Shown piece by piece: positions 5,388 through 61,969 of a DNA stretch of 64,000 nt. The DNA comes from Scenedesmus sp. PABB004 (lineage: Eukaryota), in assembly GCA_014905635.1 (NCBI GenBank), contig JABVCE010000011.1:434001-498000 (forward strand). The letters run 5' to 3'. The stretch's first letter is position 1. Every line of letters begins with the position of its first letter. The notes under the pieces were generated by a model. That model worked only from the letters and a program-made list of their open reading frames with translations, was not told where the DNA came from and searched no databases. The position numbers and the translations under genes are program-made.

Positions 5388-6255
5388 GCCGGAGACAGGG
5401 CTGCTGAGCCGGAGCGAGGGCTGCTGCTGCGCCGGAGAGCCGGAGCCGCGCCGGAGCGGCGCGGCGCGTGGGAGCGCTCGAGGAGGAGGGCCGTTTGCGC
5501 GTCGTCGCCGTCGTTGTCAGCGTGGTGGCCCCGACTGTACTAGTACCTGCAGCGCGCGCCGCGCTGGGGCGGCACCGCCCCGCACCGCGCCGCGCTGCGC
5601 GCCATTCCTTGGTCGCGCGACGGCGGCGCGCCGCCAGCCGCGGCGCGCTGTACTGTTGTGTAGATCGCGAGAGCGCGGCGCGCGACCCCCAAGAACTGCG
5701 GCGGCTGTACCTGTAGGGCCCCGGTTGTGCATGCCCCGGGCGCCGCTGCCGGGCGTCGCTGAGCGCACAGCGGTCGTGGCGCGGGCGGCTGGCCGCGGGC
5801 GGCCACGCGCGCCACGCCGCGCCCCTTTTTGGTGCCTTGGAACGAAACTGCGCGGAGGCCGGTCTGTTCGTGCGAGGGCTGGCGAGGGCGCGGAGGGAGG
5901 GAGCGGCGGGTGGGCGGCCCTGGAGCGCGCGCCGCCGCAAACTGAATTGAACTGGAGGGCGCGCACTGCTGCTCGGCGTGAGGTACCCTTGCTCGCCGCG
6001 CGTGCTGTGCGCGGCGCGCGTGCCGTGCCGGCGGTGTGCAACGGCTGAGCGGTGGGCCTCCCTACGCGCCCCGGCGATCAACAGCCAGGCGCAGGCAGTC
6101 TAGGAGCAGCCTGCACCAGCCGTGCGCCGCCGCTGCGCGTCAACCTAGGTTTGAACGGCCGCCCGCGTGCGCCCCCACCTGCCGGCGCCCCCGCCCCGCG
6201 CACAGCCCGCCCCCGATCTGCACTCTCAGCACGCCGCAGCACCGCCCGCAGCAGC

Positions 6256-8062
6256 ATGGCGACCGGGAGGAGCGCCGAGCGCGGCGCGGCGCCGCCGGGC
6301 GCGTGCGTGCTGCTGCCGGCCCTGGAGGCGCTGGGCGAGGCGGCCTGGGGCGCCGCGCTGGTGCCCAAGCTGCTGGCGGACCGTGGCAGCGCGCCCGCGT
6401 TCGCGCTGGCCTGCAGGGCGACGCGGCGCGTGGTGCACGGCGCGGTCGCGGCGCTCAAGCTGCCCGGCGGCGACTGCGAGCGCGCGGCGGCGCTGCAGGG
6501 CGGGCTGTTCGCGTCCTGCGCCAGGGTGGAGGTCACGCTGGCCAGCCGCGAGGACGCCGCGGTCGGCCTGGCGGCCGCGCTGCCGGCGCTCGCGACGTGA
6601 GCGCGCGCCCGGCGCTGCTGCTGCTGCTGCTGCTGCTGCTGCGCGCGCGGCCTGCGCCGGCATGCCGGCCGCCCACACAGCGCCGGCTGCTTGGTGGCCG
6701 TGGCGGCGTGCATGCGCCCTGCGCCGCCCACGCAGCGTGCCCGGTCGACGGCTGACGCGCGCCGCCCGCCGCCCGCCCGCCCACCGCACAGGCTGCCGCA
6801 GCTGACGGCGCTGGGGCTGCTCGTCGCGGACCGCGGTGCCAGCAAGCCGCTCACCCTGGCACTTGTGCTGGGAACTGTGCGTTATGGCCTGCCCGGCCTG
6901 CGCGAGCTCGAGCTGGGCGTCGCCGCCGGCTGGGCGGGCAGCGACGCGGCGTGGCGGGCGCTGGGCCAGGCGACGCAGCTCACGGCCATCACTGTGCGGT
7001 TCCGCAAAGGGCTGAAGGTGCCTGTCAGTCTGACGCACTGCTCGGCGCTGACCCAGCTCAGCGGCCTGGCGAGCCTGGAGGTGTCTGGCGGCAGGTTCAC
7101 CAACAGCCCTCAGCAGCAGTACGACTGGCTGGGCGGCCTGGCGCCGGCGCTCACGGTGCTGCGCCTGCCCCTGGTCTGCAGCCGCCTAGGCCTGGCGTCT
7201 GTGGGCGCCTGTACGCAGCTGCGGAGCCTTTTCCTGCATCCGTGGAGCGACGACATCACCGGCGAGGCTGTGTGGCCGACGCTGGGCGGCGACGAGTGCG
7301 CGGCGCTCGCGCGCCTGGTCGCGCTGACGGAGCTATGGTTGCCAGTCAAGCAGGGCTCTGACCCGCGCCTGCTCGCGGTGCTGGGCGCGTTGACCGACCT
7401 GCGCGTGCTGAGTGTTCATGGCCTGTCGCGTGCTTCCCTGCCGTGCCTGGCGGGCCTGAGCCGGCTGACTCAGCTGGTCGGCGAGTGGGTGGAGGGTGGC
7501 GAGGGCGCGGCCGTGGCATGCCCGTCGGTGGTGGAGCTGTGGGGCAGGGGGCCGGTGCCGTTTGCGGCCTTTCCCTGCCTGCAAACGGTCGGGCAGCGGG
7601 CGTCCTGGTCGCCGGCCACGCTGCGGGAGCTGGCCGAGCACTGCAGCGAGCTGCAGTCAATAAGGCTTCGCAAAATCAATGCAGAGCCCCAGCCTGCAGC
7701 TGCAGGGCGAGGGCGAGGGCGGTGGCGAGACGGCGCGGCGTGGCGGCGGCGCGGTCGCTGGCGCGCCTGCCCGCGCTGCGCCAGCTCGCATTTGCAGCGG
7801 GTCACGACGCAGAGGTTGCGGCGCTGGCGGGCATGCGCGCGCTGCGACTTGTGTGGCTGCACCTGTTGGGGCTGGAGCTAGCTCCAGCCCGGGGCAGCGC
7901 TGCCCCGGGCGGACGCGCGCGCGGTGCTGTGCGGGCTGTCGTTTGTCAACAGGCTGTGTGTGGGAGAATGTGGCGGAGGCGCAGGAGTGGTGGGCGGCGG
8001 CAGCGGCGCTGACCGCAGCCGGCCTGCCGCGGCCCGCCGCGGTTGATCTCGTGTCTGTCTGA
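6256..8062 (+). pseudogene. F-box-like/LRR (RNI-like) protein, frameshifted paralog of 22463-24289
   Basis: Exon 1 6256-6596, intron 6597-6791, exon 2 with LxxLxxL repeats. After about 7670 the homology to the second copy jumps between frames several times, and a block of about 27 codons is missing. Confidence 0.7.
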
Positions 8063-8175: not shown

Positions 8176-11100
8176 TCACACAGCCCCGCCCCGCTCACCG
8201 CGCGCGCGCGCCTCACCGCGCGGCGCCGCCTGCGCCGCCGCGGCGGCGGCCGCGGCCTTGGCGGCCGCGCGCGCCGTCGCCTTGGCCGCGCGCGCCTTGA
8301 GCCACTCGCGGTCGGGGACGCCGCCAGGCGGCTCGTCCGCGTCGGCGCTGCCATCGCTGTCGCTCTCGGCGGGCACGTCCCCCGGCGGCGTGAAGCCGAG
8401 GATGCGGCTCAGGTCGGGCCCCGCCGCAGCGGCCTCTCGCGCCCGGCCCTTGCGCTGCCGCGCGCCTGCCGCGCCGCTGGGCGCAGCGGCTCCCGGCCCC
8501 AGCAGCGGCGGCGGCGCGCCGACAGCGTCCAGCCAGGGCGCCCCTGTCCAGGTGCGCCTGCGGCGGCGGGCGGTCAGCGGGCGGTCAGCGCGCACAGCAG
8601 CCTCGACGGCGCGCGCGGTCCGCCAGCCGCCCCGCGCAGCGGCAGCGCGGCCTCACCGCTGCAGGCCCTTGATCAGCGCACGCTCGCTCTCAGGGATGGT
8701 GACCACGCCAAAGCTGCCCAGCGCCAACGCGGGCACTGCGGGCGCCGCGGGCGTCTCCGCTGCGGCGCCCTCGCTGGCCGCCGCGCCCGTGCCGCTGGCG
8801 GGCCGGCTGCCGCCGCTGACCGGCGCGTCCAGCGGCGCGGGCGCGGCATCGCCCTCCGCGGGCGCCTCGCCCGCAGCTGCGCTGGCCTCGCCGCCGCCGC
8901 CCGCCGCGCCTGCGTCTCCCTCCTGCGGAGCAGCGGCCCCGGCCTCCTCTGCCCCCACCTCGCCGCCCTCGTGCTCCTCCGCCGCCTCCTCGGCGGCCGG
9001 CGCGCCGGGCTCCGCCTCCGGCTGCGCGCCGCCCTCCGAGTCGCGCTCGTCTGCGCCGGCCGCCACCGCCGGCTCTGCCTCGCTGGCGCCGGCCTCGCGC
9101 GGCGGGGCGCCGCCCAGCTCGGCCGCCCCCGCCCCCGCCCCGCCGGCCGGCCCGCCGCCGCGCGGCGAGGGCGCCGCCGTGCCGTCGGCGCTGCCGCCGG
9201 CGCCGGCTGCGGGCGGCGCGCGCGCGCCGGCCGCGGCCGCCGCGGCGCGGATGGCCGCCATGTCAGGGAGGTCCCCCGCCGCCAGCAGGCGCTCCAGGCG
9301 CGCGGTGACCTCGGACAGCAGGGCCGGCAGGGCGTCGAAGAAGCTGTCGTCGTCGATGGTGTCGCGCCCGCGCGACGGCAGCGCCGGCCGGCCGCTCGGT
9401 GGCGCAGGGCTCGGCAGCGCGAGCGGCAGGCCCGGCAGCGGCAGCCCGCCGGCGACGGGGCCCGGCCCGGCGCTGCCCTCGTGCGCGAGCGAGAGCGCGC
9501 TCGCGCCGCCGCCGCCGAGCGCGTGCTCCGCGCGTGCGGCGTCGCGCGCGCGGCCAGCGTTGAGCCTGCGGCCGCCGGGGCGTGGGCGGGCGCGCGGCGG
9601 TGCGACGGGCGGGCGCTGCGGCGCACGGCGCAGCACGTGCCGGCGCGGCGCGGCGCGGCGCGGCGCGGCGCGCACCTGTTGGCCTTGGAGGCCAGCGCGG
9701 CGTCGGGGCCGCCGCCGTCGCGCGCGCCGTGTGCGCTGCCGCGGCCGCTGCCCGGAGCGCCGCCGCCATTGCTGTGGCGGCGCATCGCCTCGGCGGCGGC
9801 GGGGGCCGGGCGCGCCGCGGCGCCGCCGGCGCCGCCCGGCGAGGCGTGGCCGCCCGACAGCGGCGGCGAGGCGGCCGCCGGCGGCGGCACCTCCTCGAGC
9901 GCGACGGCGAGGCGCTGCAGCAGCGAGCGCATGCCCTGCTCCGCCGCGACGCAGATGCTGCGCAGCTTGCCAAACTGGACCTGCGCCGCGTCCATGCGCC
10001 GCTCCGCGGCCTCGATGCGCGCCGCCGCGGCCTCGCCGCCCTCGTCGCCGGGCTCCGGCGCGCCGTCGCGCTCGCGCGCCGCGTCGGCGGCCGGCGCGGT
10101 CGCCGCGGCCGCCGCCGCCGCGGCAGCGCGGCTCGACTCGAACATCGCGCTGCGCGCCGCGAGCAGGCGCCCGATCTCCGCCTTGCACGCCGCCTCGCGC
10201 CGCTCCGCGAGCGCCACGAGCTCGCGCATGCGCGCCTCCTTGGACTTGAGGCCTGCGCGCGCACGGCGGGCGCGGCAGCGCTCGGCCGGCGCCTGCCGTC
10301 GCCGCGCTGCGCGTCCCCCTGCAACCCGCCGCCGCGCTGCGAGTCCCCTGCAAGCCGCCGCCGCGCCGCACCCTGCCAGTACTCCACCACCTCGCCCGGC
10401 GTGTCGGCGCCGCTGATCGCGCGCAGCCGGTTCCAGCTCGCCTCCAGCGCCTCAATCTTGGGCGCGAGCGCCGCGACCTGGCCGCGCGCGGCGGGGCGGG
10501 CGGCGCGAGGGCTCGGCGCCCGCCCGCCGCGCGCCCGCCCGCCGCGCGCTGCCGCGCGGCCGGCCGCGCAACGCCGCGCAAAGCCGCGCAGCCGCGCCCG
10601 CGCCGGGCCCCACCTGCAGCTGGTATGCCTCCTGCTCCATCTTGAGCCGCGCCGCGGCGGCGCGCTCCGCCTTCTCCTTGTCAAGCGCGCGCTCGCGCGC
10701 CTTGACCTCGCGCTCGCGCTCCTTCTGCTGCCGCCGCTTCAGCTCGCGCACCTGGCGGCGCGCACGGGGTGAACAGCGACGCGGCGCGCGCGCACGAGTC
10801 AGGGGGGGGGGGCGCTGCGCCGGGCGGCCCTGCCGGGGCGGGCGGCGCCCGCAGCCGCGCGGCACGCCCGCTCGCCCGCGCACCTCGGCGCGGCGCTCCC
10901 GGATCTTGCGCGTCCAGTCACTCCGCGCCTCCTCGACCTGCGGCGCGCGCGCGCGCGCGTTGTTGTTGCTCAGCACGGCGCGTCGCCCCCCAGCCGCCGC
11001 GCCCCCACTCCCACTCTCCCCCCTTGGGCGCGCGCTCGCCTGGCGCTTGGTCTTGGCCAGCTCCTTCTCCGCCGCCTCGCGCGCGCCGCGCGTCGCGTTG

Positions 11101-22462: not shown

Positions 22463-24289
22463 TCACGCCTGCAGCACCGCCGCATTGACCACAGGCAGTG
22501 ACAGGCCGGCTGCGCGCGCAGCCGCAGCCGCCGCGTGCCACGCCTGCCTCGCCTCCTCGCGCGGCATGCAAACCCTCAGCACGTTGAGAAACGACAGCCC
22601 GCACAGCACCGCACGCGCGTCCGCCTGGGACAGCTCCAGCCCGCGAAGCTCCAGATCCACCTTGTGCAGCGCGCGCATGCCCGCCAGCTGCACCAGGCCC
22701 GCGGGCGTGGCCTCGCTGCCGGCTGGCACGCTCACTAGCAGGGAGGTGACCTGCGTGCAGGTGGCCAGCGCCGCCAGCTCTGCATTATCGCGCACTGCAA
22801 ATTGGAGCTGGCGCAGCACGGGCAGGCGCCCCAGCGACCGCACCGCCGCCACGCGTGCCGCCTCGCCGCCGCCCTCGCCCTGCAGCAGGCTGGGGCTCTC
22901 TACAAACTCACCATCAAGGACCAGCGCCTGCAGCTGGCGGCAGTGCTCGGCCAGCCCCTGCAGCATGGCCGGCGACCAGGCCGCCAGCTGCCCGACCGTG
23001 CGCAGGCGGGGAAAGGCCGCAAGAGGCACAGGCCCCACACCATAAAGCTCCATCACCGAGGGGCACGCAACGGGCTCGCCCTCGCTGCCGCCCTCCACCC
23101 ACTCGCCGCACAGTTGAGTCAGCCGGCTCAGACCCGCCAGGCACGGCAGGGAAGCACGCGAAAGGCCGTCAACACCAAGCACGCGCAGGTCAGTCAACCC
23201 GCCCAGCGCCGCCAGCAGGCGCGGGTCGGAGCCCTGGTCCATTTGCAGGTGCAGCTGCGTGAGCGCGACCAGCCGCGCGAGCGCCGCGCACTCGGCGCCG
23301 CCCACCGTCGGCCACACAACCTCGCCAGTGCTGCGATTGGGCCGCGGATGCAGGACCAGGCTCCGCAGCCCCGTGCAGGCGCCCACAAACGCCAGGCCTT
23401 GGTGGCTGCAGACGAGGGGGAGGTGCAGCGACGTGAGCGCTGGCGCCAGGCCGCCCAGCCAGCCGTACTGCTGCTGAGGGCTGTTGGTGAACCTGCCACC
23501 AGACACCTCCAGGCTCGCCAGGCCGCCCAGCTGGGTCAGCACCGAGCAGTGCGCCAGCGTTGCAGGCACACTCAGCCCTGCACCAAACTGCACGGTGACG
23601 GCTGTGAGCTGCGTCGCCTGGCCCAGCGCCCGCCACGCCGCGTCGTTGCCCGCCCAGCTGGCGACGTCCAGCTCCAGCGCGCGCAAGCCGGGCAGGGCAA
23701 AGCGCACGTTGCCCAGCACAGGTGCCAGGTTGAGCGGCTCGCTGGCGCCACGGTCCGCGATGTCCAGGCGCAGCGTCGTCAGCCGCGGCAGCCTGCGCGG
23801 CGGCGGGCGGGCGGCGCGCGTGCGCGTTAAGTGAGTGTTGCAGGGTGCATGCGCGCCGGCACGAACACCCAACAGCCGGCGGTGCAGGCGGCAAGCACGC
23901 CTGCGCAGGCGCTGCGCGCAGCAGCAGCAGCGCCGGGCGCCCGCTCACGTCGCGAGCGCCGGCAGCGCGGCCGCCAGCCCGACCGCGGCGTCCTCGCGGC
24001 TGGCCAGCGTGACCTCCACCCTGGCGCAGGACGCGAACAGTCCGCCCTGCAGCGCCGCCGCGCGCTCGCAGTCGCCGGCGGGCAGCTTGAGCGCCGCGAC
24101 CGCGCCGTGCACCACGCGCCGCGTCGTCCTGCAGGCCAGCGCGAACGCGGGCGCGCTGCCGGGGTCCGCCAGCAGCTTGGGCACCAGCGCGGCGCCCCAG
24201 GCCGCCTCGCCCAGCGCCTCCAGGGCCGGCAGCAGCACGCACGCGCCCGGCGGCGCCGCGCCGCGCTCGGCGCTCCTCCCGGTCGCCAT
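22463..24289 (-). CDS. F-box-like/LRR (RNI-like) protein, intact copy (2 exons)
   Basis: Exon 1 24289-23949 with degenerate F-box-like start (LPALEALGEAAW..FALACRTTRRVV). Exon 2 23792-22463 is an open frame with LxxLxxLxL repeats. Codon usage is less GC-skewed than in neighbouring genes. Confidence 0.75.
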
Positions 24290-24807
24290 GCTGCTGCGGG
24301 CGGTGCTGTGGCGTGCTGAGAGTGCAGATCGGGGGCGGGCTGTGCACGGGGCGGGGCATGCGCGCCGGGAGGTGGCGGGCGGCAGTGGCGGCCGGCCGGT
24401 CGCCTCTGCGCCTTCGCCTGTCGCGCGCGGCGGCGCCCGGCTCCTGCAGGTGTGCCTCTGGCCTGCCTGCAGGCGGGGGAACCACGACAAGCTGCCTGCT
24501 GCCCGGACGGGGACGGGCAACGTTCACGGGCGTTGACCAGTCGAGCGGTTTCTCAGTGCACCGCTCGCGGCCGATCGACGCTCGCGGCCGCTCACACGGG
24601 GGCCAAGCACATCCAACTCACTGCCGCGGTCGGCGCCGGATGCCGCTCGCGGGTGGTCAATGCGCGCAACGAGCGCGCTAAACATGGCTGTTGATTCGGT
24701 CCACGCGCGCCAGCGCTTGGCACGCGGCCTGCACAGTCCGCAAGGCGCCCACGGGCGCGCCATCGAGTCGGGTCCCATCCCCCCAACACCCCACGTCAAG
24801 TCTGCGC

Positions 24808-27526
24808 TCACTCGCGCCCCCCCGGCGCTGCCTGGCCGCTCTGCTCGGCCGCGGCCGCGGCGGCGGCGGCGGCGGCCGCCGCCAGCGCGTGCGCCGCGGG
24901 CGGCGCGTGCGCCGCGCCGTGGCCCGCGGCCGCGCTCAGCACCGCCGCCCACGCCGCCGGCGACAGCCCCGCGCCCGCGGCGGCGGCCGGGTGCGGCGCC
25001 GCGTCGGCGCCCGCGGCCGCGCAGCACGCCGGCGCGGGCGGCGGCGCCGCGGCCTTGCCGCCCTGCCGCGCCGCCGTGTTGCCGAGGGTTCGGAACTTGA
25101 TCTTGCGAATCTGCGGGGTTTCAACGGCGAGCGTGCCGGCAGGGGTTGAGACGGCGAGCGGGCCGGCAGGGGTCAGCGGGGCCGGCGGCCGCGCGGCGCC
25201 CGCTGCGCCGCCGGCCCCCGGCGCCCCGCCCCGCGCCGCGGGCGCACCTGGCCCATGTTGAGCTCCAGGCCGGGGTACTTTGCCTGCATGTCCTTGATGA
25301 CGCAGTGTGTGTAGCGCTCCGGGTTTGCCGTCACGTGGTGCCGCACGCTCGCGACGAGCTCCGCCATCTGCACGCCGCTCAGGCGCTGCCGCTTGGCCGC
25401 CGGCGCGGGGGGCGCCGCCGCCGCCGCCGCGAGCTGCGGCGCCGCCAGCTGCGCCGCGGCCGCCGCGGCGGCGGCGAGGCTGCCCGCGCTCGCGCTGCGG
25501 TGCGCCGCCTGCAGCTGCAGGCCCGCCGCCGCGCCAAGCGCCTGCTGCACCGCCGCCGCGCCGAGCGCCTGCTGCACCGCCGCGACCTGCTGCAGCTGCA
25601 GCGCGGAGGGCCAGGGCAGCGCCTGCGCGGCGGCGGCGGCCGCCGCCGCGCTCGGTGCCCCAGCCAGCGCCGCGGCCACCGCCGCGTCGACGCTCGCCCG
25701 CAGCGGGTCGCCGGCCCCGCCGGGGCCGGGCGAGGTGTCGTGCTTGCGCTTCAGCCCGCCCCCGCCGCGCGGCGACGCGGGGCCGGCGACGCGCCGCCGG
25801 GCGGCGGCCGGAAGCCCGACAGCAGCGCCATCGTCTCCGCCGCCGCCGCGGTGGCGCTGTCCACGGCGGCGCCGTCCTCCGAGGCCTTGGCGCCGGCCCG
25901 CGGCGCGAGCAGCGGCGGCGGCGGCGGCGGCGCCGCCGCGGCGCCCCCGCCCGCCGCCTCGGCCGCGGGGCCGGGCTCGAGCGAGGGCTCGCGGCTGCTG
26001 CTGAACGCGTCGTCGTCGCCGTCGAGGCCCGACCCGGGCGCCGCCGACGCGCTGCGCTCGCGGCCCGGGTCGCCGCCCGCCGCCGCGGCGGCCGCGGCGG
26101 CGGCGAGGCCCGCCAGCCCGGCCGCGTCCTGCGAGCCGCGCCGCTCGGGGCCGCCGCCGGCCTTGCTCGCCTCGTTGGCCCTGCGCGCGCGCGCGGAGCG
26201 GGCGCGCGTGAGCCGCGGGCCGGCTGGCCGGGACGCGCAGCGGGGCGCGGCTGGGCTGCTCGCCGCACGGCCGAGCCGCCCGTGCTGCCGCGGCGGCGGC
26301 GAGGTCAAGGTCCTCACCTGAACTTGATCTTGCGCACGCAGGCGTTGTTGATCTCCAGCCCCGGCCACCGGCCCTGCATCTCCCGGATGACGAGCTCCGT
26401 GTACCTGGAGGCGCCCGGCGCGGGGCGGGGCGGGCGTGGGCGCGGGGCGCGGGTGTGTGGGCGCGTGCGCGGGCGCGCGCCGCGCCGCGCCGCGACGCCA
26501 GGGGCGGGGCGGGGCCGGGCGCCGGCCGCGCCGCCGCGGGCGGGGCGGGGCGCCGCGCGCACCGTCCGGGGAAGGCCGCGTAGTTGCGCTCCACGCTCTC
26601 CAGGATCGCCGCGTGCTGCTCGCGCGTGAAGCGCGGCTTGCGCGCCGCGGCCGACCGCCCGGGCGGCGCCGCGCCGAGCGCCGCGAGCGCCGCCGCGTCG
26701 TGGTACGGCTGCGCCTGCGCCTGCGCCTGTGCGGCGGCGGCGGCGAGCGCCGGCCAGGCGGCCTGCTGCGCCGCCGCGGCGTGCATGGCGGTCACCAGCG
26801 CCGCCTGGCCGGGCAGCCCGCCGGCGCCGACGAGGCCCGCCGCGGCGGCGAGCTCGGCGGCGGCGGCGGCCGCCGCGGCCGCGTCCGGCGCGGGCGCGAG
26901 GTCCAGCGGCGCGAGGTCCAGCGGCGTGATGGGCAGCAGCTGCTGCTCCGGCTGCGCCCGCCGCGCCTGCTCCAGCGCCTGCTCCAGCACCGGCGCGCCG
27001 GCCGCGGCCGCGCCGCAGCACGGCTCCGGCTTGGGCGTCGGCGCCTCCTCCGCCGCGGGCGAGGCGGGCGCGGGCGCGGCGTCGCCTGCGGGGCGGGGGG
27101 CGGCGGCGCGCAGGAGAGTGGGCGGCGGCACGTTCCGCGCGGCGGCGCCGTTCCGGGCGCGGCGCACACGGGCGCCGCCGCGGCGCCGGCAGCTGCGCCG
27201 GCGCGCCGGGGGATGCGCGCCCGCCCGCCGCAGCGCCCACCTGCGGCCGCGGCGCCCGCCTGGGCCAGCTCTGCCGCGAGCTCGCGCAGCAGCGTGACCT
27301 GCACGCCCGCCACGATGCTGCGGGCGCTGGCGGCGTCGATGAAGGCGCAGAGCTTGGCGTAGGCGTCCTCAGCCCGCGCCGCGGCGGCCCCCGGGGCCCG
27401 GGCGGCGGGGCGGGCCGGGCACGGGGGGCCCGGCTGCTGTTTGGGGCCGCCCGCGCCCGGCAGCGCCGCGCCGGGCCCGCCAGGCGCGGCTGGCACTCCC
27501 GCGGCCGGGCCGGAGCGCTCCGTCAT
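24808..27526 (-). CDS. Hypothetical nuclear protein with two related ~55-aa HTH-like repeats
   Basis: Spliced repeats RKPRFTREQHAAILESVERNYAAFPGRYTELVIREMQGRWPGLEINNACVRKIKFR and KRQRLSGVQMAELVASVRHHVTANPERYTHCVIKDMQAKYPGLELNMGQIRKIKFR, set in Ala/Gln/Pro low-complexity linkers. Confidence 0.7.
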
Positions 27527-27642
27527 GGGTTCGGTGGCGTGGGGGCGCGGCGGGGGGCGTGCCGCTCGGGGGCCGCGTCGCGCCGGCGGGGTCGCGCCGG
27601 CCTCAACAGCGCCCGCAACAGGCGCAACACGGGCTCTCCCGG

Positions 27643-28149
27643 GGCGCGGCGGGCGGCGCGCTGCGTCGCGGCGTCGGCATCGGGCGCTGCGCGCTCGTGC
27701 GGCGCAGCGGGGCGCCGGTGCGGGCTGGATTTGCGGGGAACGGCGGCTCGCGAGGCGCGGCTGTGGGCGAGGCGTCGCAGGGCGGGGCGGAGGGGGCGGC
27801 AATCCAGGCGCGCGAGGGGCACTTGCGACGCGTTCCACGGGCTGTTAGAATGACCCGCGGCGCAGCCACGGCGTGCCTCGGCGCCGCAGCCCGCCAGGGC
27901 GCCCGGGGGCTGGCGGCACCGCGCGGAGCGGCGCGGCGCCGCGCGCGGCGCTGGGCGCGGCCCGCGCGGCGGCGCCGTCGGGCGGCGTAGGAGAGTCGGG
28001 GCGCGCCGCGCGTGGCGTGCCGGCGCGCGGGCGCCCCTGGACGTGTGCAGCGCCCGCGCACGCGCACTGCGCGCCGCCCCGCGTGGTCCGAGCGGTGCCG
28101 GGGGCGCCCCGGTCCGCGCGGTCCGCCTGCGCTGCCCGCACACAGCACG
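27643..28149. repeat. Left arm of 507-bp inverted repeat
   Basis: Reverse complement of 28407-28913. Three mismatches seen by eye. Confidence 0.95.
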
Positions 28150-28250
28150 CCGGCGGCGCCGCGTGGCCGCGCCCGGCCCGCGTGCCAGGTACCGGCGCGC
28201 CAAGGCCGAGGCTCAGTGCTCAGTCAGGCGCGGTGCCCGGGCAGGGCGCG

Positions 28251-28413
28251 CCGCCGCGCCGCGCCGCGCCCGCAGTCGCCCAACTCGCCGCTCGACGTCT
28301 CCGTGTCGGCCGACCTCTGGCCGCTGCTCAAGTTTGCGACCGCGGCCAACACCTTCCTGCCCGCCGCCGCGGGCAGCGGCGCGGGCGGGCTGGTGCTGCT
28401 GCCGGCCGTGCTG
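28251..28413 (+). repeat. Captured gene fragment (intron 3' end plus part of an exon) from about 32646-32808
   Basis: Encodes SPNSPLDVSVSADLWPLLKFATAANTFLPAAAGSGAGGLVLLPAVL, identical to the minus-strand exon except one GTG>GCG change. Includes the upstream CAG acceptor. Confidence 0.95.
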
Positions 28414-28913
28414 TGTGCGGGCAGCGCAGGCGGACCGCGCGGACCGGGGCGCCCCCGGCACCGCTCGGACCACGCGGGGCGGCGCGCAGTGCGCGTGCGC
28501 GGGCGCTGCACACGTCCAGGGGCGCCCGCGCGCCGGCACGCCACGCGCGGCGCGCCCCGACTCTCCTACGCCGCCCGACGGCGCCGCCGCGCGGGCCGCG
28601 CCCAGCCCCACGCGCGGCGCCGCGCCGCTCCGCGCGGTGCCGCCAGCCCCCGGGCGCCCTGGCGGGCTGCGGCGCCGAGGCACGCCGTGGCTGCGCCGCG
28701 GGTCATTCTAACAGCCCGTGGAACGCGTCGCAAGTGCCCCTCGCGCGCCTGGATTGCCGCCCCCTCCGCCCCGCCCTGCGACGCCTCGCCCACAGCCGCG
28801 CCTCGCGAGCCGCCGTTCCCCGCAAATCCAGCCCGCACCGGCGCCCCGCTGCGCCGCACGAGCGCGCAGCGCCCGATGCCGACGCCGTGACGCAGCGCGC
28901 CGCCCGCCGCGCC
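28407..28913. repeat. Right arm of 507-bp inverted repeat
   Basis: Reverse complement of 27643-28149. Confidence 0.95.
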
Positions 28914-30190
28914 GCGCCGGCGCGCACGCGCGCAACACCCCGCCGCGTGCGGGCGGCTGGCAGCACACCGGGCGGGCGCCGCGCTCGCTCAAACGTCGGA
29001 CGCGGTGCCGGCCGGCGGGCGCCGCCGCGCCCCCGCGCGCGGGCGCGCGCTGCCGCCGGCACGCACACTGCAGCGACAGACTCTTGGGGACAACGTGCCT
29101 GCACCGCGCGGCGCACGGGTCGCCGCTCCGCCTGGAGCGGCCGGGAGCGTGCCGCGCTGCTGCCGGCCGGCCGCCAACGTCCCCCGCGGGGTGCTGAGCA
29201 CGCCGCCGACAGGCGGTGGCGCCGCCGCGCGCTGCCGGCCGGCGGCCGCGCCGACGGCGGCCGCGCCCAGGCGCGGCCCGCGCGCGCCTGGCCGACTCGG
29301 GCGGCTGCCGGGCCCGGCGGCCTGCGAGAGGGCTCGTCGCTGAAGCGCTCGGGGCGCGCTGCGCGCCGGCCAGCGCGCCCAGGGCGACCTCGAGGTGCGC
29401 TGAACCCGGCAAGGTCATCAGCTGCTCGGCGCCGGCCCCCGCGCGCCCCCGCGCCGCCCACTCTGCCCCCGCGCGCCGCTCCCACGGGTCGCCCCGGCAC
29501 GCCGCGCGCCCGCACGCTGCGCCTCCAGCCCGCGCGCCCGCTCGCGGCCCGCCCGCCGTCGGCCCACGCCCCGGCGAGCCGTCCGAGCGCGCCCGGCGCG
29601 CAGCAGGCGCTGCCACGCAGCCTCCCTGAGCGGCACGCGCCCCGCGGCGCATCCCGCGAGCCCCCCGGCCTCGGTCCTCGTCAGCCGCGAACCGGCCCTC
29701 CCAGGAGCACCCCAGGTGCGCGGCGCATGCGCGGACGCGCGCACGGGCATCGCGGCACGCCGGCGGGGCGCGGCGCGGCGTCGCGGCCGGGGGCCGGCGC
29801 GTGCCCGAATCTCCGCCGTTGCGCGCGCTGGGGCGGCAGCGGACCGCGCATTCGGGGCGGCGCGCCGCCCCGCCATCGCAGCTGGCGCGGCGCGGGCGGG
29901 CGGGGCAGGGGCGCGCCGGGCCGCGGCATGGGTCCGCCGCTCCTCGGGGCGGGCGCCCCCGGCCCCGCGAGCGGCTGCCCGGCCCGCCCCTCGCGCGCCC
30001 GGCCCGCTGCACGTGCGACGGGGCATAGGGGCCAACGCGCGGCGCTGCCCCGGCGCGGCGGCGGCGCAGCAGCGGCGGCGGCGCGCGCGGGCGGTGCCCT
30101 TTTTTTGGGGCCCAACCGCTGCCGCCTCTCTCTTTTCCGCCTTGCCCTCACTCGCCCGCGCCACGCCGCGCCCGCGCAGGCCCCGCCACG

Positions 30191-30646
30191 ATGCTGGGCG
30201 ACCTGGAGATCGTGCACAGCGCGCAGCGCGACGCGCCCACGATGCGCCGCCTCTCGCTCGACCTCATGTCCTCCCACTCCCAGGCCGCCGCGGCGGGCGG
30301 CCGCGCGAGCGTCGACGGCGGCGGCGCGTTCAGCCTGCGCCGCCTCTCGACCAGCAGCGTCGCATCAACTGCCTCGGCGAGCTCCGCGGGCAGCCCCAGC
30401 TACTCCTCCTCGCTGCCCACGAGCGCCGGCCTCTGGCCGGAGCGCGTCACGGGGCTGTCCGGCCTCTTCCGCGCGACGAGCATGCCGCCACCGCGCGCGG
30501 GCGGCGGCGGCGGCGGCGGCGGCTCGCCGACCGCGCCGACCGCGCTCGGCCACAGCGCGTCGCTGCGCGCGCCCGGCGCGGCGCCCGAGGCTCGCATGCC
30601 GGCGCTCATCCGGAGCCTCTCCAAGGGCATGGACTCCTTCCGCTGA
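30191..30646 (+). CDS. Small Ser-rich disordered protein (151 aa, single coding exon)
   Basis: ATG-started ORF with strong C/G third-position bias and a non-artefactual composition. Preceded by a pyrimidine tract and CAG (possible 5'UTR intron acceptor). Confidence 0.7.
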   Translation: MLGDLEIVHSAQRDAPTMRRLSLDLMSSHSQAAAAGGRASVDGGGAFSLRRLSTSSVASTASASSAGSPSYSSSLPTSAGLWPERVTGLSGLFRATSMPPPRAGGGGGGGGSPTAPTALGHSASLRAPGAAPEARMPALIRSLSKGMDSFR

Positions 30647-31737
30647 GCCCCCCGGCCGAGGCCGGCCGGCGCGCGGGCGCCCTTCCTCCCGCACGCGCGC
30701 GCTCGCCTGGGCGCGCGCGGGCGCGCCGCGCTAGAGCCCCGCCGCGCCGCCGGCGCGCCCCGCGTCTGCGCGCGGGCGCCGGCGGCGCGGCCGGCTGTAC
30801 ATAGCCCCCGCAGCACTTGATGACACACGAGCGGAGCCCCCGCTGCGCTGCTGCTGCGCCGCAGCAGCAGCCGGCCAGCCGCATGGTTGCGGGTTCACAC
30901 ACCGTTTGATGGGCGAGAGTGGAGCACCGACGCGTGCCTGTCGACTGACTGATGCGGCGGCGTTCCCGCCGGCCCGACGCCGCCCGCGCGCGGCGCGCGC
31001 CTCCGCTCGTGCGCCGCCGCCGCCCCTGCGCGCAGCGCTCTGGGGCGGCGGCGCGCGCGCGCGCGCGCGAGCGCGCGGCCCGCGGCGGCGCCGACGCCTA
31101 CCGTGCCGTGTGCGCCCCGCGCGCGAAGAAAATTTGCTTGCGACGAGGCTAGCTGGGGCGTGCCGGCCCTCTCCTTCCTGTCTGTGCCCCCCGCGGCACG
31201 CGCACTTGCTTGCTTGCGGCTGGCGGTGGGCGGTTGGGGCCCACGCGGCGTAGGGCAGCGCCGCTCCCGGCGGCGGCGGTGGTGGGGGGCGATGACGACA
31301 GCGGCGGCGGCGCGGCCTCCTGCGAGTCCCCCCCTTTGGCTCCCACGTGGCGTCGGCTGCGGCCCGCCTGCTGCTCCCTCTGTGTGATTGATCGCGTGCT
31401 GCGCTCTCCTGCGCTGTGTGTGGGCCCCCGCGTCGCGGCCGTGCCGCGACGCGCGCGGGCCGGGGGCGGTCTGGGGGCGGTGTGGGCAAACCTTGTCTGC
31501 TCCTGCACGTCGGCGAGCTGCACTCCTTGCATGCACTGTTGAGGCACGCTCCTTGGGCTCGAGGGGGGCTTGGGAGGGCTTGTCCGTGGGCTCGCCCGCT
31601 GCTGCGGGCTCCCTGTGAAATCACCGCGGCGGCGGCCCCCTTTTCCAATGGCGGGGACGCGCCATGTATACCATGTGCACAGGCGGCGGTTGGACGGCGG
31701 TCGATCGCGGCGGGCGGACGGCGGGCATGTGTTGTGT

Positions 31738-31742
31738 TGTAA
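31738..31742 (+). terminator. TGTAA polyadenylation signal, probably for 30191-30646
   Basis: UGUAA is the established chlorophyte poly(A) signal. It lies in a lower-GC stretch between convergent genes. Confidence 0.5.
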
Positions 31743-31924
31743 CAAGCCCTCGCGCGCGACGCCCCCGGCCGCGCTCCGATCAGGGCCAGTGCGATGGTGA
31801 TGCTCTCTCTCGCGCGCGTGCCGCAGTGCTTACGAACGAAAGGGCAAAGGCAGCCGGTGTACACCCCCGCACGACGACGCACGCGCGCCGCCGCAACCCG
31901 CCCCCATGGCCAGCGCCCCAGCGC

Positions 31925-34900
31925 TCACGCGACGGCCGGCGCCGGCGCCGCGGGCATCGGCACGAGGCGCAGGCTGTACACGACGCGGCCGCCGCCCACC
32001 GCGCCGCCCGCGCCGGCGCCCGGCGCGCGCCGCCCGCCGCGGCCGCCGCCGCGGCCGCCGCCGCGGCCGCCGCCGCCGCCGCCGCGAGCGGCGCCGCCGC
32101 CGCCGCCGGGGGCCTCGCCGCCGCCGGCGGCCTCGCCGCCGCCGCCGAGCGCTGGCGGTGGTGGCGCGGCGAGCGTCTCGGCGTAGGGCATGACGCCGAC
32201 GTCGAGCGCGGCGCCCTTTTGCTGCAGCCGCACGCGCGCCGCCGCGACCGCCGCCATCGCGATCGTCAGCAGCGGCGGCGTGCGGCCGAGCGGGCCGACG
32301 AAGCGCACGGCCGCGGGCTGCTCCTGCAGCACCTTGGCCACGATCGCGTCGCGCAGCTTGATGGGGTCGGTGCTCAGCGACACGCGCAGCTGCGCCGACT
32401 CGTCGACCTCCAGGCCTGCGCGGCGCGTACGTGCGGCGGGCAGGCGCGCGCGTCAGCGGCGGCGCGGCCGGGCCGCCGGGCCGAGACAGGCGCCTGTGCC
32501 CGCGCGGCGCGCCCGCGCGGCGCGCGCGCGCACCGCCGGGGAGCGCGCCGGCGAAGCGCTGCAGGCGGATGGCGTACGGCACGAGCGTCTGGCGGGTGTC
32601 GTCAAAGCGATAGTCCGACGCGACCGCCGCGGGCTCGGGCGCGGGCAGCACGGCCGGCAGCAGCACCAGCCCGCCCGCGCCGCTGCCCGCGGCGGCGGGC
32701 AGGAAGGTGTTGGCCACGGTCGCAAACTTGAGCAGCGGCCAGAGGTCGGCCGACACGGAGACGTCGAGCGGCGAGTTGGGCGACTGCGGGCGCGGCGCGG
32801 CGCGGCGCGGCGGGGTGGGCCGCGGGAGGGTCGCGGCGGCGGCGGCGCTGCCGTCGCTGCAGCTGGCCGCACAGCCGCTGCGCGCGCGCGCAAGCGGCGG
32901 CGCACCTGCAGGATGCTGCGCGCGATGTCGCTGTCGCGCACCACCAGCATGCGCAGGCGGCAGCCCGGCTCCTGCTCCGGCGCCGCTGCCGGCTTGCCGC
33001 GCTGCTGCTTCTTGCCGCGCGGCTGCCGCTGCTGCTTGCCCTTGTCCGCGGGCGCCGGCTCGGCGCCAGCCGCGGCGGCCGCGCCCGGCGCCTCGGCCAC
33101 CGCCGGCTCCTCGGCCGCCGCCGAGGCGCCGCGCTTGCCGCGCGGCGGCGCCTGCGTGAGCGGCTGCACGTCCACCAGCGCCAGCAGCCCGCCCGCGCCG
33201 TCGGCGGCGTCCATCTTGCGGCTGGCGGCCAGCAGCGCCTCCCACGCCGCCGCGTTGCCCGCGGGGCTGCCGTCGCTCCAGAGCCAGGCCGCGCCGGCGC
33301 GGCTCACGCGCGCCTCCACCGCGCCGGCGAGGCCAGAGACAGAGGAGTCAGTCGTCGCGACCGCGGGGCGGCGGTCCTCCTTCACGCCGTGCCCGCTGCG
33401 CCCCGGCTGCGGCGCCGGGACCGCCGTGAGGCGGCTGCGGCGCAGCTGCAGCTGCAGCAGCGGCTCGCCCGCGCCCGGCGCCGGCGCCTCCGGCTCGGGC
33501 GCCGGCGGCGGCGCGTCGTCGCCGTCGGCCATGGGCGCGGCAAAGGTGTTGAGCGACTCCAGGCTCTCCAGCAGCTGGTCAGCAGTGCTGGGCGGCCACA
33601 CCAGCAGCAGGCCTGCGCGCGCGCGGGCGGGCGCCGGGGGCAGGCGGGCGGGCGTCGACGCGCTGTGCGCGGCGTGGGGCTGCGGGGCGCGCGCGAGCCC
33701 ACGCACGCGCGCGCGCGCCCAGCGAGCCGGCACTCACGCTTCTTTGCCTCGCGCGCCTTGACGGCGGGCGCCCGGTCCGCGCCGGCGCCGGCGCCGGCGT
33801 CAGCGCCCGCGACCGCGCCCGCGCCGCCCGCCTCCTCCCGCCCCGGCAGCGGCGCCATCACGCGGCCGAGCAGCCCCGAGAGGCGCCCGACCTGGCCCGG
33901 CGGCAGCAGCAGCGCGACGCGGCGCTGCTTCACGAGCATCGTCTGCGCCGCCGCTGCGGCGGTCGCGAGCGGCTTGGCGTCGCTGCGCGGGAGGTTGACC
34001 TTTGGCACTGGCAGCTCCTGCAGCACGACCTGCTGCGCCAGCACCGTGATCGACGTGCCCTCCTCAAAGCGCGGCAGCACGCCGACCTCGTAGCCGCGGC
34101 TCAGCAGCTGCCCCCGCACGGCCAGCAGCGCCGCGGCCGCGCGCGCCGTCGCGGCCGCGCCCGCCGACAGCAGCGTCGCGCTGCCCGACTTGAGCAGCTC
34201 GAAGCTCAGCGTGCGCGCGAGGTCGCCCGCGTCGGTGGTGCCCTTGACCGTCAGGCGCGGCGCGCCCGCGCCGTCGCCCGTGCCGGGCGCGCCCGCGCCG
34301 GCGGCGGCGGCGCCGCCCGCCACGCTCGCGCGCGCCGGCAGGACGATTGCGGTGAAGGCCGCCGACTTGGTGAACGGCACGAACAGCAGCACGCGCCCCG
34401 GCTGGCCGAGCTGGCCCTGCGCCGCGGCGATGGTCGCGATGGTGCGGTACGTGTGCGCCTCGCTGCCGCTCGCCGCGCGGATGACCGTCTGCGGCGACTG
34501 CGGGGGCGCGGCGCGGCGGGACGCGCGGCGTGAGCGCGCGCGGCGGGGTGGGGCGCGGCCGGCGGCGCGGGCGCGGCGTGGCAGCCTGCCCCGCCGCGCG
34601 CACCTGCTCCAGGCGGCGCAGCAGCGCGTTGGCGGCCTTGCCGTCTCCGACGATGATGGCGCGCTCGCTCGGCGCGCGCTCGCTGCGGCGCGCCGCCGCG
34701 ACCGCCTGCTGCCCCGCCGCGGCGTGGCCGGCGTCGGGCTCCGGCGCCGCCGCGGGCGCGGCGTCCACGCTCACGGGCTCCACGGTCGCCGTGGCGGCGG
34801 CGCCCGCGCGGCGCGGCGCCCCGCTGCGGCGTCGTGCATCGCTGCGCAGCGCCGGCCTGCGGCGGCGGCGCCGGCGCGCCGTCAGGGCCCAAGCTCGCGA

Positions 34901-40506: not shown

Positions 40507-42324
40507 ATGGCGGCGCAGCAGCTGGGCGCGCCGGCGGCGGACGCGTGGCTCGCCGAGTACGCGGCGCTGGTGCCAGAGCTGGGCGCCCTGCAGCGGTGCG
40601 CGTGCGCTGGCCGGCCGGCGCGCGCGGCGACGGCTGCGGCGGCGCACGCGGCGCACGCGGCCGACGCGGCGGGCGCGCGCCGCGCAGGTCGCGGGCGCCC
40701 CCGCCGGCGCTGCGCGTGCTGCGGTCGAGCCAGCTCGACGCGGCGCGGCTCGACGCGGAGCTCGGCACGATGCTGCGCGAGCAGTTCATGGCAGCGTTCG
40801 CGCTCTTCCAGCCGGTGCGGCGCGGGCAGGGCAGGGCAGGGCAGGGCAATGCCTGGGCCGCGCGCCGCCGCCGACGCCCCAACGCGCGCGCCGCCGCGCA
40901 GGGCAGCGTGTCGAGCCTCGCGCCGGAGCTCAACCTGCTGCTGGCGTCGCTGGTGCGCAGTGGCGGCGGCGGCGCGCACGCGCACGGCCCCCGGCCGCGC
41001 CACGCCGCAGCGCGAGCCAGCGGCGGCACACGCGGCATGGCGACGCGCCGCGGCGCCGCCCGCGCGTGGCCCTAAACCTGAACCCTGCTCGCCAGGTGTA
41101 CTACCTGTCGGTCTGGCGCGGCCGCGCCACGCCCGGCAGCGAGCTCATGGGCCTGCGCTACCGCGACGAGCGCGCCATGGCGGCCGCTGCTGCTGCTGCT
41201 GCTGCTGCTGCCGCGGCGGCGGCGGGCGGCGACAGCGCTGCCGCTGCGGCGGCAGCGCCGCCCTGGGTGAGCGTGCGGGCGGGCGCGGCAGCGGCGGCAA
41301 TTCCGCCGCCCGGCCGCTTACGTGCGCCGCCGCCGCGCCGCCGCCGCAGCTGCACGGCGGCCGCAGTGGCATCGAGGGCCCCGGGCTCTCGCAGGCGCAG
41401 CGGCTGGGCTACGCGCTGCTGCTCGTCGCCGCGCCGTACGCGTGGGCGCGCGCGGGCCGGCTCGCCGCGTCGCGCGGCTGGGGCCCCGGCGCGGCGGACC
41501 GCGGCGGGCGCGCCGCGGCCGCGTGGCGGGCGCTGCGCTGGGTCGACGGCGCGCACAAGCTGGGCGTGCTGGTCAACCTCTGGGTCTTCCTGTGGGAGGG
41601 AAAGTACCGGTGCGCGGCGGCGGCGGGGCCGCTGCCGCCGCGGCGCGGGCACCGCGCGGGCGCCGCGCGGCGCAGCTGCACGGCGCAGCTGCACGGCGCA
41701 GCTGCACGGCGCAGCTGCACCGCGCGCGGCCGCGCGACGCCGGCGCCGCGCCGCGCCGCGCCGCCGCCGCGCAGGAGCCTGGCGGAGCGCGCGCTCGGCG
41801 CGCGGCTCGTGTACGGGCAGGCCCACATGTCGCGGCTCATCTCGTTTGAGTACCTCAACCGACAGCTCGTCTGGCAGGAGCTGTCCGAGTTCCTGCTCTT
41901 CCTGCTGCCCCTCATCGACGTGGGCCGCGTCAAGCGCGCCGTGCTGCGCCTGCTGCCGCGCGTGCCGCTCGGCGGCGGCGCCGCCGGCGGCGGCGAGGCC
42001 TACACGCGCGCGCCGCCACTCGCGGGCGCCGGCGCCAAGGGCGGCGCCGGCTCGGAGCCGGGGGCGGAGCAGCAGCAGGCGGCGGGCGGGGACGCGGGCG
42101 CGGCCGCCGGCGCCGGCCCCGCCGCGCCGCCGGGGCCGTGCCCCATCTGCGGCGCGGCCGAGGTGCTCGTGCCGTTTGCGGCGCACCCCTGCCGCCACGT
42201 CTTCTGCTACTACTGCCTCGCCGCGCACTGCGCCGCCGACGCGGGGTTTGCGTGCCCGCTCGACGGCGCGCGCGTGGACGCGATCGCACGCTACGCGCCC
42301 GCCGCCGCCGCCGCCGCCGACTGA
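40507..42324 (+). CDS. PEX2: Peroxin 2 (Pex2/Pex12 domain plus RING)
   Basis: QLDAARLDAEL, TPGSELMGLRY, GIEGPGLS, YRSLAERALGARL, ISFEYLNRQLVW, CPIC..PCRHVFCYYC. Confidence 0.93.
   Translation: MAAQQLGAPAADAWLAEYAALVPELGALQRCACAGRPARAATAAAAHAAHAADAAGARRAGRGRPRRRCACCGRASSTRRGSTRSSARCCASSSWQRSRSSSRCGAGRAGQGRAMPGPRAAADAPTRAPPRRAACRASRRSSTCCWRRWCAVAAAARTRTAPGRATPQREPAAAHAAWRRAAAPPARGPKPEPCSPGVLPVGLARPRHARQRAHGPALPRRARHGGRCCCCCCCCRGGGGRRQRCRCGGSAALGERAGGRGSGGNSAARPLTCAAAAPPPQLHGGRSGIEGPGLSQAQRLGYALLLVAAPYAWARAGRLAASRGWGPGAADRGGRAAAAWRALRWVDGAHKLGVLVNLWVFLWEGKYRCAAAAGPLPPRRGHRAGAARRSCTAQLHGAAARRSCTARGRATPAPRRAAPPPRRSLAERALGARLVYGQAHMSRLISFEYLNRQLVWQELSEFLLFLLPLIDVGRVKRAVLRLLPRVPLGGGAAGGGEAYTRAPPLAGAGAKGGAGSEPGAEQQQAAGGDAGAAAGAGPAAPPGPCPICGAAEVLVPFAAHPCRHVFCYYCLAAHCAADAGFACPLDGARVDAIARYAPAAAAAAD
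41671..41720. repeat. Intronic tandem repeat, 13-bp unit CGCAGCTGCACGG, about 4 copies
   Basis: Directly visible in a PEX2 intron. Confidence 0.85.
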
Positions 42325-60300: not shown

Positions 60301-61969
60301 GGCCGGCGGCGGCGGCGCCGGCAGCGCGGCCTCGGCGGCCACGCCCGGCGGCCTGCCCACGCTGCCGCGGCCCATCAACACGCGTGCGCCCGGCGGCGAG
60401 CTGGGGGCGGCCGCGGCGCCGCCGGCCGGCGGCTTCAGCCTCAGCAGCTATTTTGGGACCACGCCGCGCAGTGCCGGCCCCGGCCGCGCACCCTCGGCCG
60501 GCGCGCTGCTGGACGAGGCCGGCGCCGGCGCCGGCGGCGGCCGCCGCGCGTCGCCGGACCGCCGCGGGCGCGAGCCGCCCTCGCCGGTGCTGCGCGGGCT
60601 GATGACACGCCCCGAGCTGGCGCTGTGCCTGCTCACCGAGGTGCGCCCGCGCCCGCCCACGCCGGCCGATCGGCGAGCAGGCCCGCCGGCGGCGCGCACT
60701 ACGCGCGCGGGCCCTGCGTTGCCCGCCGCGCCCGATGCCCGCTCGCCGTCCGCCCGCCCGCGCGCGCGCCGCCCGCCAGGTCGCGTACGAGCACGACGAG
60801 GACTTTGCCAGCCACCTCGCGCTGCTCTGCCACGTGTCGCTGCTGCTCGCGGACCACGAGGAGCGCCTCGTCGCGTCGGCGGCGGCGGGGCTGCTGGTCC
60901 ACGTGCTCTACTCCCTCACCGCGCGGCACCTCGAGGTCGCGCAGGGCGACGGCCGGCAGCTTGACACCCCGCAGGCGCGCGCGCCGCGCCGCGCGCCGCG
61001 CCGCGCCGCGCGCGGGGGCGGCGGCCGGCCCCTGCGCCCGCCCTGGCCCGCGCCGCGCCGCCGCGCGGGGCCGGCCGGCCGCTCGCCGACGGCGCCGCGC
61101 CGCGCCACGCCGCGCCGCGCCGCGCCGCGCCGCGCCGCGCCGCGCCGCGCCGCGCCGCAGGCCACGCACCTGATCAGGTACCTGCAGGGCATGCGGGGCC
61201 GCCGCCTGTGGGCGTACGAGGACCTGGCGCTGGGCCAGCAGGGCGCGCTGCCCAGCACGGCCGCGCTGGCGGGCCTGGCGCAGCACTGCCTCAGAGCGCT
61301 CTCGTTCGAGCCGGACCTGCCGGCCGCGTGGTGCGGCGTCGCGCTGGACTGGGCGCTGCACGCGCGCAGCCGCCACCTCGCGTGCCGTTCGCAGCAGGTG
61401 CGCGCCGCGCCGGCGGCGGGGAGGCAAGAGGGAGAGGGGGGGGGACATGCGCACACGCACGCGCGCGCGCGCTCGCCGGCAGCGCGCCACGCCCCCGCGC
61501 GCGCCGCCCGCGCCCGGCAGGTGCTGCGCGCGCTGGCGCCGCCCCTCAGCGCCGACATGTGTGCGACGCTGCTGGCGTGCCTGCAGCAGTGCCTCGGCGC
61601 CGCGGAGGGCTCGGGCGTGGCGCGCGAGGTCGCGTTGGAGCTGCTGCTCACGCTGCGCAGCCTGCTGGAGGCGCTGCCGCCGCGCAAGCTGCTCCTATAC
61701 CCCCAGGCCTTCTGGGCGGCGCTGTCGCTGCTGTTCAGCAGCTACGTGCACATCCACCAGCAGGCGCTGCTCCTGCTGCACACCGTCCTCGCGCGGCTGA
61801 CCATGCACGACAGCACGACGCAGAACGTGCTGCTCGCCGCCGCGCCCGCGGCCGACGCGGGGGAGCTGCAGGCGGTGCTCTCGCGCATGGCCCTGGATGA
61901 TGCCGCGGCGGCGGCGGACGGCGGCGGAGGTGTCGGCGCCAAGCCGCCGCCCGCCGGCCCGGGCAAGGC

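Follow-up and report, generated by a model that had tools for sequence, protein, structure and literature searches.

A 507-bp inverted repeat with a gene fragment in its loop in an extremely GC-rich Scenedesmus contig, a probable product of serial microhomology-primed template switching

Complex rearrangements produced by fork stalling and template switching (FoSTeS) and by break-induced replication that microhomology mediates (MMBIR) were reportedly set out by Lee, Carvalho and Lupski in 2007 and by Hastings et al. in 2009. Here, we describe a locus of comparable appearance in 64,000 nucleotides (nt) of Scenedesmus sp. PABB004 (contig JABVCE010000011.1, forward-strand positions 434,001 to 498,000; this whole stretch is called the window, and all coordinates below are counted from its first letter). 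Two 507-nt arms, at 27643-28149 and 28407-28913, form an inverted repeat whose loop carries a piece copied from another gene of the window, termed the donor gene. As in FoSTeS/MMBIR events (see also PMC8421209), switches primed by microhomology would have followed one another, nearby sequence would have been copied in either orientation, and the templates are retained. Most known cases are variants of human disease or cancer and measure tens of bases or kilobases to megabases, whereas the event considered here would be a 653-bp one of germline type, fixed or assembled in an alga-like genome of ~80% GC, with its switches at (GCGCC)n and a putative enzymology.

Two other described systems come close to the locus. 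At double-strand breaks in yeast, microhomology primes foldback duplications, mostly of ~5 to 34 bp, and insertions are templated from distant loci; inverted pairs were explained there by microhomology-mediated template switching (the parts of PMC11724301 used here). The Scenedesmus locus resembles these products in combining a microhomology-primed foldback with a distant templated insertion, in inverted orientation, but its foldback tract is 507 nt long and the distant and local tracts occur in one product. In origin-dependent inverted-repeat amplification (ODIRA), as presented in the excerpts of PMC10766183 and PMC4689423 considered here, a nascent strand copies the opposite fork arm, so that an inverted copy comes to lie beside the original, as it does in our locus. 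ODIRA yields large inverted triplications that include an origin and pass through an extrachromosomal intermediate, in contrast to the 0.5-kb inverted duplication with an ectopic fragment described below.

We consider it probable that the locus arose by a single, genuine microhomology-mediated templated insertion of the FoSTeS/MMBIR kind, 653 bp in size and fairly recent, in intergenic non-coding DNA. It is an example of a kind already known, and no new mechanism is involved.

The inverted repeat and the source of its loop

The segments of the locus and their sources are listed here; gene X is the minus-strand gene to the left of the inverted repeat, and P0001 is a protein from another Scenedesmus strain.

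27643-28149, no strand assigned: left arm, the resident (ancestral) copy in the proposed history, upstream of gene X at 117-623 nt from its first in-frame ATG
28150-28250, no strand assigned: spacer U, unique, taken as ancestral and as continuing the left arm up to the insertion point
28251-28266, plus strand: copy 1 of the 16-mer CCGCCGCGCCGCGCCG, the putative departure point
28252-28413, plus strand: donor-derived fragment in sense orientation; 28252-28275 is intron tail (24 nt) and 28276-28413 the beginning of an exon (its first 138 nt)
28407-28913, no strand assigned: right arm, read as a newly synthesized inverted copy of the left arm
28904-28919, plus strand: copy 2 of the 16-mer CCGCCGCGCCGCGCCG, the putative return point
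32646-32807, minus strand: donor template, which runs from the 3′ end of an intron (122 nt, 32784-32905) into the exon that follows
32162-34783, minus strand: donor gene, with SpoVS-like domains and collinear with P0001

The initial annotation of this stretch had proposed arms of 507 bp with three mismatches between them, and a base-by-base check bore this out: the arms are reverse complements of each other except at 3 of 507 nt (27668, 27946, and 27949 in the left arm). A repeat search placed their limits at 27640-28149 and 28407-28916 (510 nt, 99% complementary, 257 nt between them). The 257-nt spacer is bipartite, with U at 28150-28250 followed by donor-derived sequence at 28252-28413, and a blastn self-comparison found no match of at least 40 nt to U elsewhere in the window. 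The left arm is devoid of codon periodicity. The two copies of CCGCCGCGCCGCGCCG were likewise found as first reported, in direct orientation and 653 nt apart, and they bracket the donor fragment together with the right arm. Self-comparison of the window, which had been suggested as a check, recovered both the inverted repeat and the donor copy; at a length of at least 40 nt and an identity of at least 97%, only three repeat pairs were present in the 64 kb, namely, these two and an unrelated 439-nt pair. Since this stringent comparison returned just one other such pair, the inverted repeat and the donor copy are not background, and matches of this kind greatly exceed chance. What can be read directly from the sequence is the segment structure, the retained donor, a 7-nt overlap at one junction, and, as far as the window extends, an absence of transposon hallmarks.

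The loop segment 28252-28413 and the donor stretch 32646-32807 are reverse complements at all but 1 of 162 nt (28343/32716), i.e., 99.4% identity, in agreement with the earlier claim that ~160 bp had been copied from 32646-32808; the repeat search stretched this pair to 28247-28413 and 32646-32812 (167 nt, 98%). The fragment has codon periodicity on the plus strand, and 28273-28362 was matched at 93% identity in a tblastn search with the ortholog P0001, a hypothetical protein of 722 amino acids (aa) from Scenedesmus sp. NREL 46B-D3 that carries PF04232. This protein is the best match of the donor gene (61% identity, E 2.2e-51), a match by which the DNA is most likely that of a chlorophycean green alga or a near relative of one, and in a filtered tblastn search with it the exons of the donor gene were collinear and open. 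The alignment is interrupted after ...SILQ (32906) and continues from SPNSPL (32783). The intervening 122 nt (32784-32905) have GT..AG ends, and their splicing preserves the frame; because of the alignment gap, the GT..AG ends, and the restored frame, we assign them as an intron. The copied exon runs on to ~32535 in the donor gene, and only 138 nt of it are found in the copy. The copied tract is a partial exon with its 3′ splice site, not a whole captured exon. Furthermore, gene Y lies between the inverted repeat and the donor gene, which is not the immediate neighbor. Of the initial description of an exon captured from a neighboring gene, the copying of a donor at the DNA level stands, whereas the exon is incomplete and a gene intervenes.

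The donor locus is intact, indicating that the fragment was copied and not moved or cut out. The copy crosses a 3′ splice site that is confirmed by the Scenedesmus ortholog, and this indicates that the template was DNA rather than spliced RNA. Fifteen of the 24 nt of intron tail fall inside the junction microhomology, and only 9 nt (CGCCCGCAG) are unambiguously donor-derived; these differ at 3 of the 9 positions from the end of the upstream exon, which is what a spliced transcript would carry at this place. The evidence against a spliced-RNA template is modest but sufficient. A retrocopy was considered and rejected, since the copy passes from the exon into the intron tail and no poly(A) is present. 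The earlier claim of a DNA-level copy with intron sequence was thereby upheld, with the ortholog fixing the splice site and 9 nt lying beyond the microhomology.

In Pfam, two exons of the donor gene gave weak matches to SpoVS (PF04232), at 21.2 and 23.9 bits versus a cut-off of 24, and the donor-derived fragment matched no family. A bacterial sporulation-protein fold, SpoVS, is thus indicated by two regions near the Pfam cut-off in a green-alga-like nuclear gene.

Junctions, divergence, and a template-switch model

Three junctions join the segments of the locus.

28252-28266, plus strand: junction 1, departure into the donor; 15 nt common to the putative ancestral allele and the donor
28407-28413, plus strand: junction 2, donor to arm, CGTGCTG; 7 nt through which both source alignments run
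28904-28913, plus strand: junction 3, arm back to the original site, CCGCCGCGCC; 10 nt common to the arm copy and the putative ancestral allele

In the model that we favor, a growing DNA end in a short microsatellite of the (CCGCG)n type, at ~28251-28266, would leave its own template and anneal through up to 15 nt to the (GCGCC)n intron tail ~4.5 kb away. From there, ~147-162 nt of the donor would be copied across the 3′ splice site into the exon. At a second switch, the end would anneal through 7 nt (CGTGCTG/CAGCACG) to the same strand, ~100 nt back from where it had first departed, and the template there could be the end's own strand folded back or else a sister or lagging-strand template. 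Backward copying of 500-507 nt would then produce the inverted arm, and a return through 10 nt (CCGCCGCGCC) to the microsatellite left earlier would duplicate the 16-mer. The direction of synthesis is not readable from the product, as the mirror-image order on the other strand would give the same sequence. The predicted empty allele would consist of the left arm, U, one 16-mer, and the sequence from 28920 onward, and it would be 653 bp shorter than the present one. From the product we infer this allele, overlaps of 15 and 10 nt at two of the junctions, a history of one event, and the enzymology, for which replicative switching of the FoSTeS/MMBIR type or synthesis-dependent break repair would serve; so, too, with the polymerase, and with a fork or a break as the putative start.

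The model comprises three switches, and both copied tracts are inverted relative to their sources, with the same strand serving as the template. The sources are located 0.1 kb and ~4.5 kb from the insertion point, all templates fall within 5.2 kb, and both of them (the left arm and the donor at 32646-32807) are still present. Taking the left arm and U as ancestral would give the most economical history, with no orphan sequence left over. The reverse assignment, which makes the right arm ancestral and takes the left arm together with U for the insertion, was rejected: U would be left without a source, and there is no overlap at the outer left junction.

Microhomology had been proposed at all three junctions, among which the 7-nt CGTGCTG alone is directly observable. 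When 400,000 random joins of window sequence were generated, the frequencies of overlaps of ≥7, ≥10, and ≥15 nt were ~6e-3, ~7e-4, and ~3e-5, respectively; with joins restricted to 26000-34500, the corresponding values were 7e-3, 7e-4, and 9e-5. All three overlaps exceed chance, those of 15 and 10 nt conditionally on the inferred empty allele. The proposal was therefore confirmed directly for CGTGCTG (P ~0.006), and it holds for the 15 and 10 nt given that allele, with the qualification that these are based on a microsatellite. The 16-mer CCGCCGCGCCGCGCCG is made of (GCGCC)n repeats and has 7 matches in the window versus 0.14 expected, while the 15-mer GCGCCGCGCCGCGCC has 28 versus 0.82 expected. 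The frequency of (GCGCC)n in the window would explain why annealing took place at that site.

In a wider view of this microsatellite, which is strongly over-represented in the window, (GCGCC)n tracts of at least 3 units were recorded at 14 loci, e.g., 32789-32808 (minus), 41743-41762 (plus), 52408-32 (plus), 61112-61156 (plus), and 9642-9671 (minus). At least 4 native loci, taken on the local gene's strand, lie upstream of a ...GCAG 3′ splice site by no more than 12 nt, and (GCGCC)n may act as this genome's version of the polypyrimidine tract.

The two pairs of copies have diverged to the same extent, with 0.59% for the arms (3/507) and 0.62% for the donor pair (1/162). This equality fits one event, and it rests on four differences in all, which makes it statistically weak. 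Three of the four mismatches are CpG transitions (P ~0.01 if differences were uniform), and both transitions of this type between the arms have CpG in the left arm and TpG or CpA in the right arm. At the donor mismatch, the copy encodes Ala, as does the Scenedesmus ortholog, and the donor encodes Val; the donor seems to have mutated after being copied. With CpG transitions and an ortholog residue kept in the copy, the differences look like real mutations acquired after copying. This pattern speaks for a real allele whose evolutionary history is short rather than for a chimera, and it does not amount to proof.

Several points weigh against a single templated insertion. The structure is known from one assembled consensus, the copy number of the arm was counted within the 64-kb window only, and the empty allele is a reconstruction from this same sequence. 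The abundance of (GCGCC)n lowers the evidential weight of the 16-mer and of junctions 1 and 3, and the intron contributes just 9 bases beyond the microhomology, 3 of which are informative versus a spliced transcript. In addition, gene conversion between such close inverted arms could keep them alike, and 99.4% identity alone does not date the event.

Rival origins

Strand-displacing polymerases in vitro also yield inverted chimeras with microhomology junctions, and DNA as extremely GC-rich as this (84% here) poses difficulties for both sequencing and polishing. The consensus might include a chimeric or fold-back molecule, generated by in-vitro template switching or a missed adapter, while the chromosome has the shorter allele only. 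We regard such an assembly or library artefact as unlikely. The structure is internal to the 64-kb stretch and not at a contig end, with normal gene order on its flanks, and one chimeric read would not normally win the consensus. Moreover, the four differences from the sources, with three CpG transitions and one site at which the copy has the ortholog residue, are expected of evolution and not of a chimera made from the same DNA. Two further histories accept the allele as real and dispense with one continuous event: the inverted duplication could have formed first and received the donor fragment later, or end joining could have captured free fragments at a double-strand break, with no templated synthesis involved. 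Green algae and plants are known to capture genomic fragments at breaks, and the equal divergence of the pairs (3 and 1 mismatches) is statistically weak. In the two-step version, however, the second event must strike the earlier junction exactly; for ligation, classical end joining would not usually leave 7-15 nt of overlap at each junction; and both templates are retained and local. We therefore judge an origin in two steps or by ligation to be very unlikely.

Pack-MULE and foldback transposons, too, have long inverted arms around a gene fragment that includes intron sequence, and the superficial layout of the locus would suit a mobile element with the 507-nt arms as terminal inverted repeats and a captured gene fragment between them. 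Dispersed arms with target-site duplications, named in the initial annotation as the sign of such an element, were looked for in the 64-kb window. There, no further copy or fragment of the arm was detected by blastn (word 11, E 1e-3) or by the repeat search (seed 16, minimum length 90), and no exact direct repeat of at least 7 nt flanks the inverted repeat within 6 nt of slop per side. The longest flanking direct repeat is the 6-mer GGCGCG, whose left copy is part of the left arm. In a metagenome collection, an exact 26-mer of arm sequence had 0 matches. In contrast to what is seen in Pack-MULE and foldback elements, resident sequence is the best reading of one of the arms. The source of the captured fragment is no more than 4.2 kb away, and fragment and arm meet in an overlap of 7 nt; the directly repeated 16-mer encloses the donor fragment and one arm only, which would be a coincidence under a transposon model. 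From what the window shows, a transposon origin is very unlikely.

Insertions made by polymerase theta (Pol-theta) in synthesis-dependent microhomology-mediated end joining (SD-MMEJ) typically comprise a few to a few tens of bases, stem from within ~100 bp of the break, and use overlaps of 1-6 nt. Compared with these generally known sizes, the tracts of ~150 and 507 nt and the overlaps of 7-15 nt at the present locus are large. An insertion by Pol-theta end joining is an unlikely candidate, given tracts of 147-162 and 500-507 nt, one of which comes from 4.5 kb away, and the 7-15-nt overlaps. What fits is the snap-back geometry alone, in which a 3′ end would turn back ~100 nt upstream on its own strand through a short microhomology (compare PMC2943611). 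The initial annotation had favored a FoSTeS/MMBIR or Pol-theta-type event over a transposon. Template switching fits every testable element of the locus and no target-site duplication was found, so this part of the proposal stands, whereas Pol-theta fits poorly with a 507-nt tract and is an unlikely source.

Genomic setting and the predicted hairpin

The inverted repeat is housed in a non-coding gap of ~2.7 kb, as delimited by codon periodicity. It is internal to the 64-kb stretch, away from the contig end, and its flanking genes are in normal order, with a divergent pair on its two sides.

25176-27526, minus strand: gene X, on the left, recognized by minus-strand codon periodicity; first in-frame ATG at 27526, taken as the putative start codon
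30191-30646, plus strand: gene Y, on the right, a single-exon open reading frame (ORF) of 151 aa, whose ATG-to-stop ORF coincides with a block of codon periodicity

Gene X contains at least 3 copies of a ~50-aa motif (...PERYTHCVIKDMQAKYPGLELNMGQVR-like). A search with the conserved 53 residues of this domain returned 9 relatives at 84-90% identity, all of them unnamed algal-type proteins (jgi/lgn sources), and their gene models gave no help in placing the 5′ end of gene X. Its exons matched no Pfam family, and its low-complexity exon had no match in a word-index protein search. The protein of gene Y is Ser-rich; an identical 151-aa entry and 9 relatives of 122-209 aa (47-61% identity) were found in a representative library. 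Gene Y matched no Pfam family either, and of 597 pattern matches to its relatives in the metagenome collection, 0 were confirmed by tblastn.

The G+C content is ~80% across the whole window, 74-84% in each 2-kb bin, and 84% near the inverted repeat. Third codon positions are 95-100% G+C, and coding blocks were recognized by near-100% G+C at these positions; the introns of the genes in the window are short and of the GT..AG type. Owing to this composition, with 74-84% G+C overall and 95-100% at third positions, all six reading frames are largely open, and lists of ORFs carry no information.

A second, larger inverted duplication was observed elsewhere in the window, at 6189-7656 and 22928-24356, with its arms ~15 kb apart. 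Its 439-nt core is 98% identical (6189-6627 and 23918-24356) and its flanks are 82-87% identical, and it encodes near-identical protein segments. This suggests that a gene was duplicated in inverted orientation at an older date and that one tract has undergone recent gene conversion.

When 27630-28930 was folded as RNA, the minimum-free-energy structure was one continuous stem of ~507 bp, at -1549.7 kcal/mol, an energy computed without a shuffle control at this length. A transcript of either strand, if made, would thus be predicted to fold into a long hairpin with a 507-bp stem and a 257-nt spacer, consistent with the initial suggestion that a long RNA hairpin is possible. An Rfam search over 27000-30300, with E up to 1, gave 0 matches. 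The gene-derived piece is in the loop, and the stem is made of non-coding DNA from upstream of gene X. With this arrangement, should Dicer process the stem, the products would correspond to sequence upstream of gene X rather than to the donor gene.

How plant MIRNA loci and hairpin small interfering RNA (siRNA) loci are born by inverted duplication is the subject of a model that is said to go back to Allen et al. in 2004 (see also PMC2582634). The Scenedesmus locus shares with this model a young, near-perfect long hairpin that arises by local inverted duplication. In the model, the stem derives from the coding sequence of the future target, whereas here it would come from non-coding DNA upstream of gene X, with the gene piece in the loop.

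That the locus is a newborn hairpin-RNA gene is unlikely. Such a gene would have a stem that duplicates 0.5 kb upstream of the start of gene X, in a control region shared with the divergent gene Y. If this were true, read-through or promoter-proximal transcription would give a perfect double-stranded RNA of ~507 bp, and small RNAs aimed at the leader or promoter of gene X could lead to transcriptional or post-transcriptional silencing or to local methylation. The locus would then represent the birth of a proto-siRNA or proto-MIRNA locus at which the mutational mechanism can still be read, and exonization could draw on the 3′ splice site and the open exon fragment of 138 nt that the loop contains.

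The templated insertion that we consider probable would, if real, be an unusually legible natural case of serial microhomology-primed template switching, with templates both retained and local, three readable junctions, and hardly any later decay. One error of replication or repair would have placed a long hairpin-forming repeat in a promoter region and, in addition, moved a splice site and an exon fragment. It would also mean that a microsatellite of intron tails, (GCGCC)n, which is present genome-wide, was used as the annealing point. The locus could serve to illustrate such events, and it could be the starting point from which extremely GC-rich algae are searched genome-wide for others like it.

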